From: an uncultured Actinomycetes bacterium
GTDB taxonomy: Bacteria; Actinomycetota; Actinomycetes; S36-B12; CAIYMF01
DNA length: 32,000 bases
Direction: 5' to 3'
Assembly: GCA_963843975.1 (NCBI GenBank)
Contig: CAWJMG010000001.1
Span: forward strand, 1,170,001-1,202,000
Every line of letters starts with the position of its first letter. Positions within the stretch are counted from its first letter, which is position 1. The position numbers were made by a program, and so were the translations under genes. This document shows positions 9,217-32,000 of the stretch, piece after piece. A model generated the notes under the pieces. It was not told the DNA's origin. It saw only the letters and a program-made list of their open reading frames with translations, and searched no databases.

Positions 9217-9336
9217 CAAGATCACGACTCCGGGCGGGATCCGCGCAGTTCAACTACGTGATCCTTCCCTTAGGGAAGAATTGAGCAGTTGAACTGCGTG
9301 TTGCTTCCCTTAGGGAAGAAACACGAAGTTCATGGG
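9217..9336. repeat. Family-1 intergenic repeat, copy B (double-core version)
   Basis: It has the same head (CAAGATCACGACTCCGGGCGGGATCCGCGCAGTTCAACT..). Two perfect 15-bp palindromes CTTCCCTTAGGGAAG follow at 9264-9278 and 9304-9318. They are embedded in longer arms (GCAGTTCAACT/AGTTGAACTGC and GAACTGCGTGTTG/AAACACGAAGTTC). It lies between convergent gene ends. Confidence 0.85.
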
Positions 9337-25810: not shown

Positions 25811-26305
25811 GTGAGAACCACGACCGCAGGACGCACCGCGCTGGAGGACCGGCAGATCCCGGTCCAGGGCAAGCTCGCAGCCGCGTGGGCGAGCTTCATG
25901 TTCTTCTACATCTACGTCGACTACCTGGCGCTGTATAAGCCGGGCTTCCTCGGCGACATCCAGGCCGGCGTCGTCCACGACTTCGAGACGGGCCCGCTCT
26001 TCGTCGGCGCCTCGCTCACCCTGGTCGGGATCCCGGCGCTGATGATCCTGATCTCCGCCGCCGCGCCCGCACGGGTCGGGCGCATCGTCAACCTCGTCGT
26101 GGCAGCGCTCTACGTCCCCGTCACGATCTACAACGCGTCGGGCGAGTCCCTGAGCTACGCCTACTTCTACGGCCTCTCCATCGGGGTCGAACTGCTGCTC
26201 CTGGCCTTCATCCTGCGTTCCGCCTGGACGTGGCCGCACACGACGGTGACGTCGATGCCCGACGTCGTGGAGCACGACGTGGCGCGGGTCCGCACCTCGC
26301 ACTAG
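25811..26305 (+). CDS. Small polytopic membrane protein (DUF6326-like)
   Basis: GTG 25811; 164 aa with 4 hydrophobic helices. ..KLAAAWASFMFFYIYVDYLALY.. resembles the N-terminal motif I recall for DUF6326. Divergent from the TetR gene. Confidence 0.7.
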   Translation: MRTTTAGRTALEDRQIPVQGKLAAAWASFMFFYIYVDYLALYKPGFLGDIQAGVVHDFETGPLFVGASLTLVGIPALMILISAAAPARVGRIVNLVVAALYVPVTIYNASGESLSYAYFYGLSIGVELLLLAFILRSAWTWPHTTVTSMPDVVEHDVARVRTSH

Positions 26306-26357
26306 GCAGGTGGGCGAGTCCGGCGCTGCCCGCCAGCTGGTCAGCAACCAAGTGCGT

Positions 26358-26394
26358 GAAACCCACCGGAATCGAGCTCCATCCGGTGGGTTTC
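26358..26394. terminator. Perfect 13-bp stem-loop downstream of the membrane-protein gene
   Basis: GAAACCCACCGGA (26358-26370) / TCCGGTGGGTTTC (26382-26394) with an 11-nt loop. There is no U-tract. Confidence 0.55.
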
Positions 26395-26403
26395 GCGCAC
26401 CTC

Positions 26404-26720
26404 GCGTAGGGGCGAGGGATCCGTCTCGGGCTGGCGCAGGTACGCGAGCGGAGGGCGAGGGATCCGTCTCGGGCTGGCAGAGGTGCGACGGTCGGGCGGC
26501 TTCGCCGCGGTGGGTCGAGGGGCTGCTGGGGTTCCTCCCGAATCCCTCGCCATCGGGCTGGGGCCCTACGGGCCCGGCGGAGGGCGAGGGATCCGTCTCG
26601 GGCGGGCGCAGCGGCGGTCAGGGGGGCGCCTTCGGCGCGGTGGCCCGGGCGGCGCGGGGGTTCCTCCCGAACCCCTCGCCCTCAGGCTGGGGCCCTTCGG
26701 GCCCGGCGGAGGGCGAGGGA
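26404..26720. repeat. Tandem array (about 43 + 129 + 129 bp, then a partial unit) of palindromic units, each ending in a copy of the tRNA-Ser acceptor/T-stem 3' strand
   Basis: GGCGGAGGGCGAGGGAT recurs at 26576 and 26705; variants lie at 26447 (AGCGGAGGGCGAGGGAT) and 26408. GGGGTTCCTCCCGAA(T/C)CCCTCGCC recurs at 26528 and 26657. Hairpins GGGCCC-TAC-GGGCCC (26561-26575) and GGGCCC-TTC-GGGCCC (26690-26704) occupy equivalent positions. Confidence 0.85.
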
Positions 26721-26757
26721 TTCGAACCCTCGGGATGTTTCCATCCAGCGGTTTTCA
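26704..26757 (-). other. Orphan 3' portion (anticodon loop to acceptor end) of a tRNA-Ser(UGA) gene; probable att-site remnant
   Basis: The minus strand reads CTTGAAA (loop, anticodon TGA) ACCGC TGGATGGAAACATCCC (class II variable arm GGATG-GAAA-CATCC) GAGGG TTCGAAT CCCTC (T arm) GCCCTCC G CC. Upstream sequence lacks the complementary anticodon-stem strand (it has ATGAT where GCGGT is needed), a D arm, and the 5' acceptor strand GGAGGGC. Confidence 0.65.
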
Positions 26758-26864
26758 AGATCATTCCCCGGGTCGGGTGCGCACGCGAGAATCCTTGTGC
26801 TGAGCACGAAATCGCGGTTCGGGGCCGTCCTTGAATGCCTTCTCTGGCCCCTGTTTCCCGCTAC

Positions 26865-26897
26865 ATCTGGCACGGATCTGGCACGGATCTGGCACGG
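26865..26897. promoter_or_regulatory. Perfect 3 x 11-bp direct repeat (ATCTGGCACGG), iteron or recombinase arm-type site candidate
   Basis: ATCTGGCACGG ATCTGGCACGG ATCTGGCACGG read directly. It lies about 110 bp from the tRNA fragment in non-coding DNA. Confidence 0.7.
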
Positions 26898-26915
26898 CAC
26901 GAGAAGGCCCGTGGG

Positions 26916-26943
26916 GTCCTGGGCGTCCCCCCGGAGCCCAGGA
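26916..26943 (-). terminator. Stem-loop downstream of the minus-strand sigma/anti-sigma operon
   Basis: GTCCTGGGC (26916-26924) / GCCCAGGAC (26935-26943), 9-bp perfect stem, about 55 nt after the stop at 26998. Confidence 0.45.
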
Positions 26944-26997
26944 CACCACCGGTCTCGCAGCCCGCGCGCCACCGGGGCACGTGTCGTCGCGCGGGAG

Positions 26998-27480
26998 TCA
27001 TGGGCGGGGCTGCGGCACGCCGAGGCGCGCGCAGACTGTCGCGTCGTCGGGGAACACCACGAGCGATCCGTCCACGATGCAGGCGGTGAGCTCGGGCGGG
27101 ATGCCCGTCTGGTCGGGGGCGGTGACGATCCCCGCGCGCCACATCGCGGTGCACGCATCGACTGCCTGGAACGCTGATTGGTTCCCGTCGACGTCCGGCA
27201 CGGCACCGAATGCGAGCTGACCCCAGACTGCGGAGTCCAGTGACACCGTCGGTGAGCAGTAGCCCAGGTTCGGCTCGTCCGGGCTGGCGAAGCGCAGGTA
27301 GGCCGCCGCCGTACCCGCGCCCACCAGTAGCACCGCGACGACGGCAGCGATCACCGCGAGGATGCGCCGGCGGTGTCGCACACTCGTTGGCGCTAGACGG
27401 ACCTCGGCCATGACGACGGTCTTGATCTGCGCTGCCCGCGCGTCGCTCAGCGGGGGCGGCCAGGAACCCAGGTCACTCAT
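26998..27480 (-). CDS. Single-pass membrane protein coupled to an ECF sigma factor (putative anti-sigma factor)
   Basis: ATG 27480 overlaps the sigma stop by 8 nt (ATGAGTGA). One TM (ILAVIAAVVAVLLVGAGTAAAYL) is followed by a Cys-containing extracytoplasmic domain of about 100 aa. 160 aa. Confidence 0.7.
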   Translation of the reverse strand: MSDLGSWPPPLSDARAAQIKTVVMAEVRLAPTSVRHRRRILAVIAAVVAVLLVGAGTAAAYLRFASPDEPNLGYCSPTVSLDSAVWGQLAFGAVPDVDGNQSAFQAVDACTAMWRAGIVTAPDQTGIPPELTACIVDGSLVVFPDDATVCARLGVPQPRP

Positions 27481-28072
27481 CGCCCTCCCCCTCCCCTGCG
27501 GGGTTGTATCCGGCTTCGAGCAGCGCCGTACGCAGCTGCTTGCGGGCCCGCATCAACCGCGACCGCACTGCCGCATGCGTCAGGCCCAACGCCTCGGCGG
27601 CCTGCTCGTACGACAGCTCCTCCATCAAGCACAGCGACACCACCTGTCGGTCGGTGTCAGCCAATCCGGCCAGCGCCGCCGCCAGCGACCGTGCCGCTGC
27701 CTCCAGCGATGCCTGCTCGATCACCGCGCCGGCGTGATCCGGTTCCACGGCCGGCTGCGGAAGCCGTGCCAGTGCCGCTCGATACCGGCGGCGCGAGCGT
27801 CGATGGTTCAGTGCGACGTTCGTCGCCGTCGCCAGGAGCCACGGCAACGCGCTCCCGTCGACCACCCGGATCGCATCACGGCGCCGCCACGCCTCCAGGA
27901 ACACCATCGCCACAAGGTCGTCGGCGTCCTGCACCGTGCCAAGCTGGCGGGCGCAGTGCGCGTGGATCCGGACCACGTGCCGGTCGTACAGCTCCTCGAA
28001 CGCCGCCGACTCGCCCGACGCCACCCGGGCGCACAGCGAGGGCTCGTCGTCCGGGGGAGCCTCCTGCCTCAC
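27473..28072 (-). CDS. ECF RNA polymerase sigma factor
   Basis: ..SAAFEELYDRHVVRIHAHCARQLGTVQDADDLVAMVFLEAWRRR.. (region 2) and ..LADTDRQVVSLCLMEELSYEQAAEALGLTHAAVRSRLMRARKQL.. (region 4). The start is uncertain: GTG 28072, or upstream ATG 28207 / GTG 28234. Confidence 0.85.
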   Translation of the reverse strand: MRQEAPPDDEPSLCARVASGESAAFEELYDRHVVRIHAHCARQLGTVQDADDLVAMVFLEAWRRRDAIRVVDGSALPWLLATATNVALNHRRSRRRYRAALARLPQPAVEPDHAGAVIEQASLEAAARSLAAALAGLADTDRQVVSLCLMEELSYEQAAEALGLTHAAVRSRLMRARKQLRTALLEAGYNPAGEGEGDE

Positions 28073-28394
28073 ACCCCCTAGTGTCCGGCCCGCGCAAACC
28101 GTCGCACGGAGCCCTCCGCAGGCCGCGTCAACGAGGCGGCGGTCGTTGCCCAAGCCTCCTGGCGCGGAGCCGACACTGGCGTGCGACGAATCCGCGGCTT
28201 CGGACATAGGGCGTGTGTGGGCGACCCTCCCCACGGGGGTGGGAGGGATCGGCCACGCTCACCCGGCCGCCGTCGACCTAGGGAGCCACGTCTATGACCG
28301 TGCGTCAGCACGTCGCCCGGTTGTGCCTGGTGGACGAGCGCCGGGTCGTGCTCCTTGAGGCCGACGACCCCGAACATCCGGCAGTATCACTCGC

Positions 28395-28886
28395 ATGACA
28401 GGGGAGGAGTCGGAGCCGTTCGCGACGGTGCGACCCGCGGTCCACCAGCCCGTGCGACAGAGACGCCGCTGGTGGCTCGTGATTGCTGCGGCGACCTCCC
28501 TGCTGATCCTTGGTGCCACTGCTGCGGCGCTCGGCCTGCGCGATGACTACAACAACGGGGCATTGTTCTTCTGCATCAGCGACGACGTGGCAGCCGCGAT
28601 CCATGACGAGACACTCGCGCTTGTCCCGGCGAACGCAACAGGTATGACCAGTCGGGTCTCGGACTGCGACGATCGCCGTGCCACGACGGTCCAGTTCACC
28701 GACACGTCCAGCGACGAAGCGACGCTGTTCCAGGCGGCGGCGCGAGCTGGATGGACAAGAGCCACTCCCACATGTTCCGAGAAGCAGATCAGCGGCCGCA
28801 GCGTGCATCTGAAGATCGACGTCGTTGCTGCCCCTGACCCCAGCGCTGGGCAGTGGTCCCTCTACGCCTCACCGGGATCGTGCTAG
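28395..28886 (+). CDS. Hypothetical membrane-anchored protein in a lower-GC patch
   Basis: 163 aa with one N-terminal TM (WWLVIAAATSLLILGATAAALGL) and 4 Cys in the exported part. Divergent from the ECF sigma gene. Codon GC3 is weaker than elsewhere. Confidence 0.55.
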   Translation: MTGEESEPFATVRPAVHQPVRQRRRWWLVIAAATSLLILGATAAALGLRDDYNNGALFFCISDDVAAAIHDETLALVPANATGMTSRVSDCDDRRATTVQFTDTSSDEATLFQAAARAGWTRATPTCSEKQISGRSVHLKIDVVAAPDPSAGQWSLYASPGSC

Positions 28887-29255
28887 TCGCGAATTGGCGC
28901 GGACTTGGCGATCGAGCTCGACTGGTCGCCGACAGGCGATGATCTGCCCGTGGCGACACTCAGGCACCGGATCCTTCCCCGAGAGCGCGGCTGCAGTTCA
29001 CGTTGTCCGTGCTCTGGACTCTGAAGGTGTCGTGACAGGCGTTGAGGTGAACGAGCCTAACGCCGCGCCAATCGACATCACGTTCGACATCATGGGGAAG
29101 AACCGATGATCGTGACGATGGGTGCTGGGGTTTCCAACGCGCGCATCGTTGGTACACGTCCAGAGCACGCGCGCCCCATCATCGAGCTCGCGTGGAGCCT
29201 GAAGGGATGGCCCAACTTCAGGCGCGATTGACACACCTAGGTGCTGATTGTGCTC

Positions 29256-29282
29256 GTGTGAGCCCCGCTGCCGGGCTCACAC
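29256..29282 (-). terminator. 10-bp perfect stem-loop overlapping the abiEii stop codon
   Basis: GTGTGAGCCC (29256-29265) / GGGCTCACAC (29273-29282) with a 7-nt loop. Confidence 0.45.
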
Positions 29283-30161
29283 CCAGGTCCCGGTGTGGGC
29301 CTCCCACCGGCGATCGGTGACGCGACCGAGTAGTACCGGGTCCGCGAAGCCGATGACTCTGCCGAGGACGTCCTGGAAGGTGCTCGGCAGATCGTCCCTG
29401 TCGTGGCGACGACGCCAGGTCGCGTACCGCGGTTGAGCGAGTGCGGGGAAGCCGACCAGGACTTCGCTGAGCGGCAGCAGGTGAACTGCGCGGTGGGCAG
29501 CGACAGAGCTGATCGCGAGTTCGAGCTCATCGCCGGCCACGTCGTGGCGGCCGGCGAGGGAGTACACGTCGCCGAAATCCCGCCATCGAGTGTTGGCGGT
29601 ACCGCGGCTGACGGCCGTGACGATCTTCTCGGCATGGACCATGACGATCGGATAGCCGCGCAGAGCGACAGGATCCCCGAGGACGCGGGGCAGCTCGATG
29701 ACCTGTGGCTCGGGGACGATCGGGTCTCCGACGTTGACGTCGATGTGCAGGTGGATCTCGACCGTCGCGAGGTGGGCGACGAGACTGACGCGGACACCGG
29801 CGTACTCGTCGTCGTCCCGGATGATGCTGGCGGTCGCAGCAGCAGTGTCGAAGGTCAGGCCATCTTCGGCCGGCAGCGCGGCCACGGAGCGAACCATGGC
29901 GAGCACGGTCTGCGCATCGTTGGCCAGGTCGTGGGCCTGCAGGTCGATGTCTCGGGTCGGGCGCCGTAGGTCGAAGGCGGCGAGCAGCGCGCCACCCTTG
30001 AGGACGACGTGGTCTCGCTCGGGCGAGGCGGCGAGCCTGGCGAGGAACCCGTCCAGGGCGTGGAATGTGTAGAGCTCCTGCGGCGACCGTCCGGCGCGGG
30101 GCGCAAGATTGCGCAGGTCGTTGAACGCGGCCCCCGACGGCGTCGATCGGGGCACGGTCAC
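29277..30161 (-). CDS. abiEii: AbiEii/AbiGii-family nucleotidyltransferase toxin (type IV toxin-antitoxin, DUF1814)
   Basis: GTG 30161 overlaps the antitoxin stop (GTGA). 294 aa. ..ERDHVVLKGGALLAAFDLRRPTRDIDLQ.. is the hLKGGtAL...R.T.DiDl NTase motif, followed by ..VRVSLVAHLATVEIHLHIDVNVGDPI... Confidence 0.88.
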   Translation of the reverse strand: MTVPRSTPSGAAFNDLRNLAPRAGRSPQELYTFHALDGFLARLAASPERDHVVLKGGALLAAFDLRRPTRDIDLQAHDLANDAQTVLAMVRSVAALPAEDGLTFDTAAATASIIRDDDEYAGVRVSLVAHLATVEIHLHIDVNVGDPIVPEPQVIELPRVLGDPVALRGYPIVMVHAEKIVTAVSRGTANTRWRDFGDVYSLAGRHDVAGDELELAISSVAAHRAVHLLPLSEVLVGFPALAQPRYATWRRRHDRDDLPSTFQDVLGRVIGFADPVLLGRVTDRRWEAHTGTWV

Positions 30162-30761
30162 AGCAGGATCTCCAGCGCCGACCGGATGGGTGCCTCGGCC
30201 CGGGGGAACCGGGACGCCAGAGCGAGCAGCTGCGATGGCTGGGCCCCGGGCCGCGCGAGCCATCGGCGCAGCGCCTCGTTGCCGAGCTCGGGCCCCTCCA
30301 GCCGGCGGAGCCGGAACGCGTCGACGATGCAGCGCTGCGCAGAGTAGAGCCCGATGGAGTGTCCGTCGCCGAGCCTCGAGGTGCTCTCGTCCGAGGTCGA
30401 AGGTGGCGGCAGCGAACCGGTGCCACGCGATGGGGATCGCCAGGCTGGGTGGACGGGTGCCGGCGGGCAGTGCGATGTGCAGTCGAGAAGGGATGTCGTC
30501 GGACAGGCCGTGGCGCGACAGCGCTGATCGCAGGCAGATGGTTGCCGCGGCCGCGCGTACCGAGATCGTGAGCAGGTCGGGGTCGGCCGGCGCGTCGGTC
30601 GCCTTGGCGTACCAGCCCCGGCCCGCGAGCTCGAGCAGGCCCTCCCCCCGCAAGCTCTCCAGCGCCCAGTCGCTGACACCCAGGTCCAAGGCCTGGCCGC
30701 GCGAGAACGACGGGGGGAGCAGATCGAGCCACTCGCTCCGGGGGGTAGCCGGTCGGGCCAT
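30158..30761 (-). pseudogene. abiEi: AbiEi-family antitoxin/transcriptional regulator, interrupted by an apparent +1 frameshift at 30374-30375
   Basis: From ATG 30761 the sequence reads MARPATPRSEWLDLLPPSFSRGQALDLGVSDWALESLRGEGLLELAGRGWY.. (AbiEi N-terminal wHTH), up to ..AWHRFAAATFDLGREHLE. The conserved C-terminus LGDGHSIGLYSAQRCIVDAFRLRRLEGPELGNEALRRWLARPGAQPSQLLALASRFPRAEAPIRSALEILL* is in the frame reached by skipping one base. The span is 604 nt, which is 3n+1. Confidence 0.8.
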
Positions 30762-31966: not shown

Positions 31967-32000
31967 CGTTGCCCGCCGTCGCATCGGCGGTGCCGCCGCC

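Follow-up and report, generated by a model that had tools for sequence, protein, structure and literature searches.

Elements of the ERIC, REP/BIME, Correia and MIRU types are GC-rich, transcribed intergenic DNA and form hairpin families present at tens to hundreds of loci per genome. Pre-4.5S RNA is a hairpin substrate processed by tRNA-end enzymes such as RNase P, and site-specific recombination of folded hairpins is so far known from integrons and Xer-exploiting phages. Integron attC sites are imperfect palindromes of ~60-140 nt with conserved base boxes and a variable interior whose structure is kept, and they stand in tandem at one primary site with a one-strand folding bias (PMC2727003, PMC5027507). 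Mini-hairpins of the d(C-GNA-G) type serve as single-strand initiation signals and are found in phage N4 promoters and Streptomyces telomere overhangs (PMC13037366, PMC3201870, PMC4513846). In addition, displaced tRNA 3′ fragments together with direct repeats mark genomic islands in tRNA genes (the logic of Islander; PMC4383910), and the integrative elements of actinomycetes include tRNA-gene islands with such fragments and repeats (PMC2440964).

The locus described here lies in 32,000 nucleotides of DNA from an uncultured member of the Actinomycetes (the window, by which the whole stretch is meant); related loci are designated by L numbers. A clade-specific tandem array of 0-3 modules of ~130 bp, inserted exactly after the last bases of tRNA-Ser(UGA) (...CCCTCCGC[C]), is well supported, as are its host clade (Sporichthyales/'Nanopelagicales'-type actinobacteria) and the change of copy number and of the order of unit types A and B by recombination between 17-26-nt copies of the tRNA 3′ core. 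Like the dispersed families, the units are GC-rich imperfect palindromes of ~100-130 bp with a copy number varying between strains, but they are found only at the tRNA-Ser(UGA) 3′ end, and their arms copy the end of the adjacent gene. The likeness to tRNA-gene islands consists of a fragment that starts in the anticodon loop, 17-26-nt copies at the unit ends that resemble island repeats, and reuse of the site; the units differ in being ~130 bp long, free of genes, homologous over their full length and provided with an inverted copy of the tRNA end, in having no anticodon-loop crossover, and in a compensatory evolution of the interior that is not expected of scars.

The attC properties named above are shared by the units. 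However, no integron integrase was found beside the examined loci, including the arrays with an intact tRNA, the RYYYAAC and GTTRRRY boxes are absent from the units, nearly all 'cassettes' are empty, and a tRNA gene end serves as the primary site. With tRNA minihelices and pre-4.5S RNA the units have in common a coaxial acceptor plus T-stem helix of 11-12 bp, a 3′ G-C-C tail and a rod of ~105 nt, but a ~75-nt rod replaces the T loop, position 1:72 is mismatched (types A and B), and the units are recognised by neither ARAGORN nor Rfam. As in d(C-GNA-G) DNA mini-hairpins, loops GAA, GTA, GGA and GCA closed by C-G, G.A-rich mismatches and hairpins densely packed on one strand are present (PMC13037366, PMC3201870, PMC4513846), whereas those hairpins sit at origins, promoters and chromosome ends and have known proteins, and the units are internal and beside a tRNA. 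No description of minihelix repeats linked to a tRNA, or of att units in tandem, turned up in the literature searched, in agreement with an earlier note on this DNA, which had held that no such element was known.

Array layout and the split tRNA-Ser gene

Two full 129-bp units and one truncated unit occupy positions 26410-26704 of the window and abut a tRNA-Ser(UGA) 3′ fragment (26705-26760), all on the minus strand. The period given in the earlier note was borne out by Tandem Repeats Finder (period 129, 2.1 copies, 84% matches, 26448-26721; a second period of 43 bp at 26395-26478) and by the 21-nt core CCCGAGACGGATCCCTCGCCC, which occurs three times on the minus strand (at 26410, 26453, and 26582) with 0 occurrences expected by chance (100 shuffles, even with 3 mismatches tolerated). 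The fragment starts in the anticodon loop (TCTTGAAAACC), contains the variable and T arms and the 3′ strand of the acceptor stem, and reaches G73-C74-C75. ARAGORN called no tRNA in the window. From TCTTGAAAACC to ...GCCCTCCGCC, the fragment aligns base for base with the intact tRNA-Ser(TGA) genes of two relatives (L003 and L014), and the tRNA-Ser 3′ fragment reported earlier is therefore real.

Linker mini-hairpin 1 (GGGCCC-GAA-GGGCCC, 26690-26704) directly follows the tRNA end and is itself followed by the pyrimidine-rich linker CAGCCT (26684-26689); at other loci, its position is taken by GGGCCC-GTA-GGGCCC, GCGGCC-GAA-GGCCGC, GCGGCC-GCA-GGCCGC or GAGC-GAA-GCGAG variants. The body of unit 1 (type B, 26577-26683, GAGGGCGAGGGG...CCCTCGCCCTCCGC) is a 107-nt rod hairpin according to the consensus structure and the single-unit fold, and it matches the covariance model with 96.4 bits (E=2e-15). 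Its base helix pairs GAGGGCGAGGGGTTCG with CGGATCCCTCGCCCTC, and its apical hairpin is GCGCC-GAA-GGCGC (26626-26638). Mini-hairpin 2 (GGGCCC-GTA-GGGCCC, 26561-26575) and the linker CAGCCC (26555-26560) lead to the body of unit 2 (type A, 26448-26554), a 107-nt rod hairpin as well (107.9 bits, E=2e-17), with the apical hairpin GCGGC-GAA-GCCGC (26496-26508) and 92% identity to the type A unit of Longivirga aurantiaca. Unit 2 begins GATGGCGAGGGA, and its 5′ arm thus contains one mismatch, a disruptive change to GATGGC where GAGGGC is expected. The truncated third unit (26410-26447) comprises the linker TCGCGTACCTGCGCCAG and the 3′ block CCCGAGACGGATCCCTCGCCC; it stops after CCCTCGCCC, before TCCGC, where the chromosomal flank CTACGCGAGG begins. 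L009 has a homologous truncated end, and L008 and L010 share the cut point at other flanks. The apical hairpins (written GCGGC-TTC-GCCGC and GCGCC-TTC-GGCGC in the earlier note) and the outer ones (GGGCCC-TAC/TTC-GGGCCC) lie where they had been placed, but the outer hairpin, taken to be inside the unit, belongs to the linker between units (GGGCCC-GNA-GGGCCC), and the supposed short unit of ~43 bp with an internal deletion is the linker plus cut 3′ block just described.

Judging by its alignment, the fragment appears to be the displaced attR-type half of a tRNA gene split by an integrated element; such a displaced piece, matching the intact gene over its 3′ portion, is a genomic-island trait. 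The break point is common to three other upstream sequences (L008/L012/L010, L009, and L004), and at least four different element junctions are found at the tRNA-Ser locus, which is a proven hot spot of integration and has served different elements more than once. Here the split gene has the array on its chromosomal side, and the array therefore follows only the displaced 3′ fragment. Neither the att nature of the fragment nor the position of the array on the chromosomal side of a hot spot had been noticed before. There is no integrase among the window ORFs scanned up to position 32000, the far end of the element lying beyond the window; in L009, an integrase, a resolvase, and a primase stand 5-9 kb from the fragment, and in Longivirga the intact tRNA sits on another contig than the fragment. 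The elements seen here have their crossover in the anticodon loop, and the implied identity block is ~55 nt long. Serial att-site scars, each the remnant of one integration, would be bounded by this block, but the units share only the last 17-26 nt. The fragment is 55/55 identical between the window and L005 despite ~12% difference in the neighbouring DNA, and gene conversion could therefore mimic constraint.

Several other candidates were also tried. In Rfam, the window had 0 matches at the gathering score and 12 weak matches at E<=10, of which the best (Plastid-psbl-rps4 and tRNA-Sec) fell on the tRNA fragment and the remainder were low-scoring, unrelated hairpin-type families, some overlapping unit 1. 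A phage or plasmid origin was rejected, blastn of 26380-26960 against both collections having found only a tRNA match in a Brevibacillus plasmid. Among viral contigs, three unit patterns produced one chance match, which the covariance model rejected, and contigs with the same tRNA-Ser 3′ end held ordinary tRNA arrays or att fragments without units. Chance was taken as the cause of the core matches found in a Clostridia MAG, in a Phormidium contig, and within a coding region of an Actinomycetota MAG; the tRNA-Ser(GGA) of this last MAG has no fold-back. An in-frame protein repeat is disfavoured by unit lengths of 129, 130, and 131 bp and by the 0-3 copies, and a degenerate tRNA pseudogene by the absence of similarity to D, anticodon or variable arms. 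The contiguous GGAGGGC-GAGGG-GTTCG is simply the uninterrupted 3′ end of the tRNA in reverse complement. Repeats of type III toxin-antitoxin RNAs, which stand just upstream of a toxin endoribonuclease gene and share its transcript, do not fit either, a terminator-like hairpin and the convergent DUF6326 gene lying downstream.

Distribution among relatives

At least six genomes or metagenome contigs of relatives contain the modules, which in every case begin immediately after the tRNA-Ser(UGA) 3′ end, in tRNA orientation and in 0-3 copies. The tRNA is intact at two of the loci, L003 of Longivirga aurantiaca CGMCC 4.7317 (2 units, contig NZ_JBHSTI010000059.1) and L014 (one unit with a completely different interior). 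A second Longivirga locus, L004, has a tRNA fragment and 2 units beside DUF6326, and a Nanopelagicales MAG (L005) has 1 unit. A metagenome scan yielded a 3-unit array (L008), and neighbour-gene look-ups yielded L009 (1 unit and a partial one), L010 (2 units), and L011 (a partial unit). In L012 there are 0 units and the tRNA end is joined directly to the terminator, and in L013 the end is decayed. Counted from the tRNA, the unit order is B-A-partial in the window, A-B in Longivirga, A in L005, B-A-B in L008, and B-A in L010. Comparison of L012 with L004 reveals a precise insertion after CCCTCCGC, ahead of the same terminator.

In a scan with the 21-nt core, which covered one genome per species, all units detected lay at tRNA-Ser(TGA) 3′ ends; exact-core matches in Longivirga and the Nanopelagicales MAG lay nowhere but at these ends, and the covariance model detected no copy elsewhere in the ~160 kb + 86 kb of DNA searched. 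The units are thus present in relatives, and no copy was seen away from the tRNA-Ser 3′ end. Dispersed REP/BIME, ERIC or MITE families were rejected on the same scans, which found no scattered copies. Inverted arms are present, and the candidate target-site 'duplication' is the 17-26-nt tRNA end; since this 'duplication' is the tRNA end itself, it is indistinguishable from recombination at that core.

It is conceivable, though rather unlikely, that the units are neutral by-products of att-site scars and palindrome growth and have no function. Their origin would then be an ancestral fold-back (a template switch at the small hairpin behind the tRNA) with a duplicated tRNA 3′ end, or an element remnant that carried one; unequal crossing-over between the 17-26-nt direct repeats would make them a variable-number repeat. 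Templated repair from arm to arm inside the palindrome, together with gene conversion by the tRNA end, would keep the arms identical and produce apparent compensatory changes. The copy number of 0-3, with units lost in L012 and decay seen in L013 and L010, fits such a history, as does the resemblance of the unit 3′ ends to ~30 nt of tRNA (CAxCCCGAG...ATCCCTCGCCCTCCGCC, with GGTTCGA changed to ACGG). The 55/55 identity of the dead fragment in the window and L005 and the ~97% identity of the L003 and L004 arrays point towards conversion between copies, and the interior identity of ~87% between species is only slightly above the fourfold-site identity of the neighbouring gene (62-78%). Single units of the window also have weak z-scores (-1.5 and -2.1). 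On the other hand, both type A and type B persist in genomes that have only 72-88% identity in the flanking protein.

Alternatively, the rods could be folded single-stranded DNA recombination sites, with units and occasionally genes shuffled as cassettes by a recombinase acting in trans. Formal parallels are integron attC x attI recombination and the hairpin integration of CTX phage at dif. The rod base recreates the double-stranded last 12-17 bp of the tRNA-Ser gene and could therefore recombine with the tRNA end or with units. This reading agrees with the integration hot spot and its at least four element junctions, and with array ends that break at one fixed point, after CCCTCGCCC(C), next to at least three unrelated flanks (window/L009, L008 twice, and L010). 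Gene inserts speak for it too: L008 contains a ~500-bp insert with a DUF4440 gene, flanked by direct copies of GGATCCCTCGCCC, and in L011 a unit with a 5-nt duplication at its end precedes a SMI1/KNR4 gene. However, the gene insertions number just two, a consistent link between the array and any recombinase is missing at the examined loci (the genes beside the intact-tRNA loci are ordinary, without an integrase), and the units lack the anticodon loop in which elements here cross over, the integron core motifs, and any copies in the viral and plasmid collections. Moreover, array divergence parallels that of the chromosomal flank, which suggests vertical descent and not mobility. Recombination at folded single-stranded sites is considered doubtful, and its strongest form, a tRNA-anchored and mostly empty integron-like cassette platform in Actinobacteria, with a trans recombinase and gene capture in L008 and L011, improbable.

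Most of the arrays found lie behind dead tRNA fragments without a tRNA promoter, yet they are well preserved. In Longivirga, the array behind the intact tRNA (L003) has perfect base helices, whereas two derived A.C disruptions are present in the one behind the fragment (L004) of the same genome, which speaks for a link of the modules to a live tRNA.

Fold of the modules and its strand

Each module is a short C-GNA-G mini-hairpin followed by a rod hairpin of ~105 nt. The rod base, which is 12-16 bp long and invariant, copies the tRNA T-stem plus acceptor 3′ strand and its fold-back: the 5′ GAGGGCGAGGG(R)TTCG of a unit pairs with its own 3′ CGGATCCCTCGCCCTC, the base strand reads CGAAT-CCCTC-GCCCTCC opposite its complement, and the end is GCC. 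At its end, every unit has 17-26 nt that directly repeat the tRNA 3′ end, and the ACGG-altered 5′ half of the T arm is invariant in all units. The minihelix of the earlier note, an acceptor/T-stem stack without D or anticodon arms, is thus largely right. The interior, which had been described as T-loop-like with two separate GC hairpins, is instead a continuous rod that contains three helices and, at its apex, only one hairpin (C-GAA-G), and RNAalifold returned one rod hairpin per unit. A second local hairpin, GGGGTTC-GGGAG-GAACCCC, was set aside, being outside the consensus fold and absent from L009 and L014.

Pairing statistics were derived from 14 units of 7 loci, with slid partners as controls. 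Paired cells reached 97.1%, against 40-46% in the slid controls, 8 pairs had double compensatory changes (a number reached in 0/500 shuffles), and the covariation score was 0.224 against <=0.043. The base helix showed no covariation across the 14 units, its sequence and not only its pairing being fixed, and the covariation evidence is therefore limited to the interior. Structure kept while sequence drifts, as proposed earlier, thus holds for the interior, where further copies do compensate, but not for the base. The L014 unit has only the base blocks in common with the others, yet its fold has z=-5.1. In keeping their structure while the sequence varies, and in their strand bias, the hairpins show an attC-like trait, and a base that is invariant and identical to the target, below a variable interior of kept structure, is the attC pattern that single-stranded recombination sites would display (PMC2727003).

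Pairing favours the tRNA-sense strand. RNA z-scores were more negative on this strand in 4/4 units tested, a one-strand preference that would also suit folded single-stranded DNA. In the consensus pairs there are 30 G.U cells versus 3 A.C cells, whereas symmetric maintenance of a DNA palindrome, as under neutral upkeep, should yield both. Three-base-loop hairpins are C-GNA-G on the sense strand in 26/31 cases in the arrays, compared with 16/628 elsewhere (2.5% background). At least seven different stems carry C-GNA-G loops, all on the same strand, which drift and templated repair do not predict, and the unpaired internal loops GGGAGGA / GAGA are invariant even in the L014 unit with its unrelated interior; both observations argue against a neutral by-product.

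The leading reading, held tentatively and short of an even chance, is the array as described above with a fold that works on the tRNA-sense strand, most plausibly as RNA, namely a structured tRNA-trailer RNA. At the intact-tRNA loci, the modules separate the tRNA 3′ end from the next downstream inverted repeat able to form a hairpin, and they should therefore be transcribed as a 3′ trailer. Pairing of the 5′ arm with its own 3′ arm would leave the tRNA acceptor strand free, and each module would then show a tRNA-like acceptor/T-stem stack with a G-C-C tail, a shape that RNase P, 3′ trimming enzymes, and the CCA-adding enzyme may be expected to handle.

Several points are counted against the RNA reading. 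In the thermodynamic optimum of the whole array, the 3′ arm pairs with the next unit's 5′ arm across the linker hairpin (z only -2.6), and the tRNA end likewise pairs with the next 5′ arm, so that the minihelix register is one of two competing folds. A generic RNA helix accounts for the fixed base sequence less well than does gene conversion or a site that needs identity with the tRNA gene. In RNA hairpins under selection, GNRA or UNCG tetraloops are usual. The C-GNA-G bias, the weak z-scores, the lack of an Rfam match, and the preservation of arrays behind dead fragments without a tRNA promoter weigh in the same direction. As DNA, the C-GNA-G loop is exceptionally stable, far more so than as RNA (PMC13037366, PMC3201870). 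Together with G.A-rich internal loops, such loops are hallmarks of DNA mini-hairpins (PMC13037366, PMC3201870) and recur in Streptomyces telomere overhangs (PMC4513846), in favour of single-stranded recombination sites.

If the fold acts as RNA, a bacterial tRNA gene would have tandem conserved tRNA-end-like hairpins in its trailer, a new class of tRNA-linked structured RNA and a natural in vivo test of RNase P, 3′ trimming, and CCA-adding enzymes on minihelix-type substrates. If it acts as DNA, folded-hairpin site-specific recombination would reach the tRNA genes of high-GC Gram-positive bacteria. Either way, the array changes the post-tRNA sequence expected by island-mapping tools, at a site that is among the most heavily used integration sites of these genomes, and provides a ready variable-number marker for a poorly studied clade. 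Longivirga aurantiaca is a cultured strain, and a direct test is therefore possible.

Neighbouring genes and possible tRNA-Ser mimicry

On the chromosomal side, a DUF6326 membrane-protein gene (25811-26305, plus strand; Pfam PF19851, E=1e-6) forms the conserved flank that was used for finding orthologous loci; its orthologues, with 72-88% amino-acid identity, adjoin the same site in L004, L005, and L008-L013. A 19-bp inverted repeat found by repeat search (GTGCGTGAAACCCACCGGA ... TCCGGTGGGTTTCGCGCAC, 26352-26400, without assigned strand, 95% complementary) is kept in L005 and L009 and is likely a shared convergent terminator between the array and this gene. It fails the simple hairpin-plus-T-run rule, and no terminator-like site was found in 26200-27100, the unit hairpins being followed by G/C-rich sequence.

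On the element side, an AbiEii-family gene (MenT/AbiEii-type nucleotidyltransferase toxin by Pfam; 29277-30761) lies 2.5 kb from the array. Processed units with a CCA end might act as tRNA-Ser mimics or decoys that titrate seryl-tRNA synthetase (SerRS) or such a toxin, which is considered very improbable. The units agree fully with tRNA-Ser in acceptor positions 2-7 with 66-71, in the T stem, and at G73-C74-C75, and MenT3 of M. tuberculosis prefers serine tRNAs (PMC7450476, PMC11541572). However, SerRS binding also uses the variable arm (PMC11541572), which the units lack, and position 1:72 is always mismatched in A and B units. In addition, arrays also lie beside unrelated elements without AbiE and at island-free loci, and the toxin gene is on the element side whereas the array is on the chromosomal side.

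The arm of the element beside the crossover (26761-26997, minus strand) was characterised by repeat searches and contains a perfect direct repeat of 11 bp in three copies (ATCTGGCACGG, 26865-26897) as well as an inverted repeat of 20 bp (26905-26955); it is conserved in L005/L015, and a related CGTGCCACATCG motif is present in the arms of L008, L012, and L010. Beyond it, genes for a 160-aa protein without a Pfam match and an ECF-type sigma factor (Pfam Sigma70_r2 and r4; 26998-28234, minus strand) are transcribed toward the tRNA fragment and the array, and this region is 90.7% identical to L005 and L015, compared with 81% on the chromosomal side.

The array and its tRNA-Ser(UGA) integration site

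The array at 26410-26704 on the minus strand, directly 3′ of the tRNA end, seems securely described: its fold-back hairpin modules derive from the tRNA-Ser(UGA) 3′ end, to which they are anchored, and the array is specific to one clade and varies in copy number. It is comprised of unit 1 (26577-26683), unit 2 (26448-26554), and a truncated third unit (26410-26447). Tandem Repeats Finder reported a period of 129 bp at 26448-26721 (2.1 copies, 84% matches), bearing out the tandem period claimed in the earlier note, and a second period of 43 bp at 26395-26478; the hairpins quoted in that note are all present where it had placed them. The minus strand of the window has three copies of the 21-nt core, CCCGAGACGGATCCCTCGCCC, with none expected in shuffles even when three mismatches are allowed. 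ARAGORN detected no tRNA genes in the window. The stretch at 26705-26760 (-) aligns with the intact tRNA-Ser(UGA) of relatives from the anticodon loop (TCTTGAAAACC) through G73-C74-C75, which confirms the tRNA-Ser fragment recognized previously, and the window array sits behind this dead tRNA piece. A 19-bp inverted repeat (26352-26400), a DUF6326 membrane-protein gene, and a TetR gene lie to the left of the array; three perfect 11-bp repeats (26865-26897), a 160-aa gene, an ECF sigma factor gene, and an AbiEii-family gene lie to the right.

In relatives, the same tRNA fragment is found beside the same DUF6326 gene, yet the sequence upstream of the break differs. The break reads ...aatga/TCTTGAAAACC in the window, L005 (a Nanopelagicales MAG locus), and the related locus L015; ...gttga/TCTTGAAAACC in the related loci L008, L012, and L010; and ...cagcacc/CTTGAAAACC in L009, whose inserted DNA codes for integrase, resolvase, and primase. 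A fourth type occurs in L004, a Longivirga aurantiaca locus. Because L008 and L012 have the upstream arm in common but differ in the variable arms of the tRNA fragment, the crossover lies in the anticodon loop, and the fragment and everything 3′ of it are therefore chromosomal. The window and L005 are 90.7% identical on the sigma-factor side (up to 28271) vs. 81% on the DUF6326 side. Taken with the crossover position, this puts the array on the chromosome's side of an att site that has seen frequent use.

L010 carries two different tRNA-Ser 3′ fragments on one contig (10150-10200 and 12720-12780); units are missing from the older of the two, which has diverged (acceptor CCCTCCCCCTCC), and the other has two, as if inserted elements had accumulated in tandem at a single tRNA. 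The dead fragment of the window (26705-26760) is identical to that of L005 (4072-4127) at 55/55 positions despite about 12% difference in adjacent non-coding DNA and 77% identity of the DUF6326 genes, which suggests that the intact copy has converted the fragment or that selection preserves the att site.

Distribution and anatomy of the units

A scan of one genome per species with the 21-nt core matched L. aurantiaca (Sporichthyales) and one 'Nanopelagicales' MAG. L. aurantiaca carries two units behind an intact tRNA-Ser(TGA) (L003), and another contig of that genome (L004) holds a tRNA fragment, two units nearly identical to those of L003, and the DUF6326 gene; in the MAG there is a single unit (L005). 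When metagenomes were scanned with an independent block, the three-unit array of L008 emerged, and neighbour-gene look-ups added L009 (one unit and one truncated unit), L010 (two units, behind its second tRNA fragment), L011 (a partial unit at a contig end), L012 (zero units), L013 (a decayed end), and L014 (an intact tRNA and one divergent unit). The earlier note had raised the questions of whether units recur in relatives and always lie 3′ of tRNA-Ser. Further copies do occur in relatives, and none occurred away from tRNA-Ser 3′ ends in the two species-representative genomes, in a covariance-model search of about 160 kb of related loci, or in viral and plasmid collections. L012 has nothing between its tRNA end, ...CCCTCCGC, and the same terminator hairpin that in L004 comes after both units; thus, the array is a precise insertion after the last bases of the tRNA.

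The apical hairpin distinguishes type A (GCGGC-GAA-GCCGC) from type B (GCGCC-GAA-GGCGC), types that are older than the species splits. Counted from the tRNA, the order is B-A-partial in the window, A-B in Longivirga, A in L005, B-A-B in L008, and B-A in L010. On the tRNA strand, each module contains a mini-hairpin (GGGCCC-GNA-GGGCCC, GCGGCC-GNA-GGCCGC, or GAGC-GAA-GCGAG), a short pyrimidine-rich linker, and a body of about 105 nt, for which RNAalifold gave one rod hairpin (11 bodies; 14 after model-based alignment). In the 16-bp rod base, GAGGGCGAGGGRUUCG pairs with CGGAUCCCUCGCCCUC; above it are a conserved purine-rich internal loop (GGA/GAGA), three internal helices, and the apical C-GAA-G hairpin. 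The base corresponds to the contiguous tRNA 3′ end (CGAAU-CCCUC-GCCCUCC) and its reverse complement, and the simplest origin would be that the tRNA end was copied twice, once as a fold-back and once directly, with ACGG replacing GGTTCGA in the direct copy. The L014 unit retains GGAGGGCGAGGGGTTCGGGAGGA and GGTTCCCTCGCCCTCCGCC alone; although its interior sequence is unrelated to that of the other units, it folds into a perfect 12-bp helix with a GGCGC-GCA-GCGCC tip (z=-5.1).

Copy numbers of 0-3, decayed loci, near-neutral interiors, and the 55/55 identity of a dead tRNA fragment are what neutral scars or palindrome repeats homogenised by conversion might leave; the loop bias, strand bias, and invariant unpaired motifs make this account rather unlikely. 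The literature search found no description of a tRNA-end hairpin-unit arrangement and no database family matches the units, in agreement with the earlier note, whose author knew of no such element. The ingredients combined in the array are known ones, namely direct repeats of tRNA ends at islands, intergenic hairpin repeats, and repeats of variable number, with a modest probability that the array is of a more unusual kind.

Maintenance of the fold and nature of the folded molecule

It also seems secure that the module fold is maintained on the tRNA-sense strand. In 14 units, standard pairs occupy 97.1% of cells vs. 40-46% when partners are slid by 1-3 columns, and the covariation score is 0.224 vs. 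at most 0.043, for a consensus structure derived from the same unit sequences (the test was also computed in an 11-unit version). Two-sided changes occur at 8 pairs (slid controls, 0-4; matched by 0/500 shuffles), which represent few independent events because covariation largely separates types A and B. The compensatory change described earlier extends to these pairs but not to the 16-bp base, which shows no covariation in 14 units. Five disruptions are the sole exceptions to standard pairing in the base, and each belongs to an array that follows a tRNA fragment: one in window unit 2, one in each of the L004 units, and two in L010 unit 2. The pairs favour one strand (30 G.U vs. 3 A.C cells), and RNA z-scores are lower on the sense strand in 4/4 units tested.

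Single units adopt the 'minihelix' fold previously proposed, whereas in the minimum free energy structure of the whole window array (z=-2.6) each 3′ arm, the tRNA's own included, pairs across the mini-hairpin with the 5′ arm of the next unit. Only the minihelix register leaves the tRNA acceptor strand free, and it would be expected to form first during transcription. The favoured reading, still tentative and somewhat short of even chances, is that the units form a structured RNA in the 3′ trailer, with a base resembling a tRNA. Obligatory co-orientation, position before the terminator, tolerated G.U pairs, the tRNA-compatible register, and confinement of base disruptions to copies behind tRNA fragments would fit it; the invariant base, the DNA-type loops, and the good preservation of arrays even behind dead tRNA fragments argue against it.

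With regard to the loops, 26/31 perfect hairpins with three-base loops in the arrays are C-GNA-G on the tRNA-sense strand (GAA, GTA, GGA, and GCA, on at least 7 different stems), compared with 16/628 outside arrays. A GNA loop closed by C-G is a classic, extraordinarily stable DNA mini-hairpin with much weaker RNA counterparts (PMC13037366, PMC3201870), so that the enrichment appears to point to DNA. The arrays share this loop with natural single-strand initiation signals and phage N4 promoters (PMC13037366, PMC3201870) and with Streptomyces telomere overhangs (PMC4513846).

Arrays end in two ways: after the full core CCCTCCGC(C) in L003, L004, L005, the L008 distal block, L014, and the tRNA of L012, or after CCCTCGCCC(C) in the window/L009, L008 (twice), and L010, with unrelated sequence beyond each time. 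In L008 (1573-2110), an insert of about 500 bp with a DUF4440/SnoaL-like gene (1640-2053) lies inside the array, between a truncated unit end (GGATCCCTCGCCC/GGCCGAGCCT/GATCCCTCGCC/) and a lone full 3′ block abutting the terminator, so that GGATCCCTCGCCC is present in direct orientation on both of its sides. At 1928-2671 of L011, a type A unit and the DUF6326 gene flank an SMI1/KNR4 (SUKH-1, immunity-protein-like) gene, and the unit ends in CCCTCGCCC-CGCCC-TCCG, a 5-nt duplication within the core. These few cases are suggestive of site-specific breakage. Fixed break points and inserted genes, GNA loops, a unit base identical to the target, and a conservation pattern like that of integron attC (PMC2727003) would suit folded single-stranded DNA recombination sites or cassettes. 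However, integron motifs are absent, no recombinase is consistently linked to the arrays, and divergence looks vertical, which leaves this possibility doubtful.

Inserted DNA and other window features

On the inserted-element side, about 100 bp from the tRNA crossover, ATCTGGCACGG occurs as three perfect head-to-tail copies (26865-26897), kept in L005 and L015 as two perfect and one degenerate copy; a related motif, CGTGCCACATCG, is found in the arms of L008, L012, and L010. An integrase or excision factor may bind these repeats as arm-type sites. An imperfect inverted repeat (26905-26955; 20 bp, 85% complementary, 11-nt spacer) between them and the stop codon of the 160-aa gene is probably the terminator of that gene's operon.

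A 494-aa protein (29277-30761, minus strand), encoded 2.5 kb from the tRNA-Ser fragment, has a long N-terminal extension and an AbiEii/DUF1814 nucleotidyltransferase-toxin domain at residues 239-466. MenT3, a relative of this family, modifies the acceptor ends of serine tRNA. The nearby gene could suggest that the units are a tRNA-Ser decoy for SerRS or a MenT/AbiEii toxin, which is highly improbable: arrays are also found without such toxins, and the preference of MenT3 for tRNA-Ser depends on a long variable arm (PMC11541572) that the units lack. That the gene lies so near the tRNA fragment is probably fortuitous. GC content immediately upstream of the AbiEii-like gene (28500-29500) falls to about 64-65% vs. 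71% for the window, and similarity to L005 and L015 stops at 28271; therefore, the inserted DNA looks mosaic. Elsewhere, a 40-bp tandem repeat at 9245-9320 (1.9 copies, 88% matches), unusually AT-rich against 71% GC, includes the palindrome TTCCCTTAGGGAA and may be an operator.
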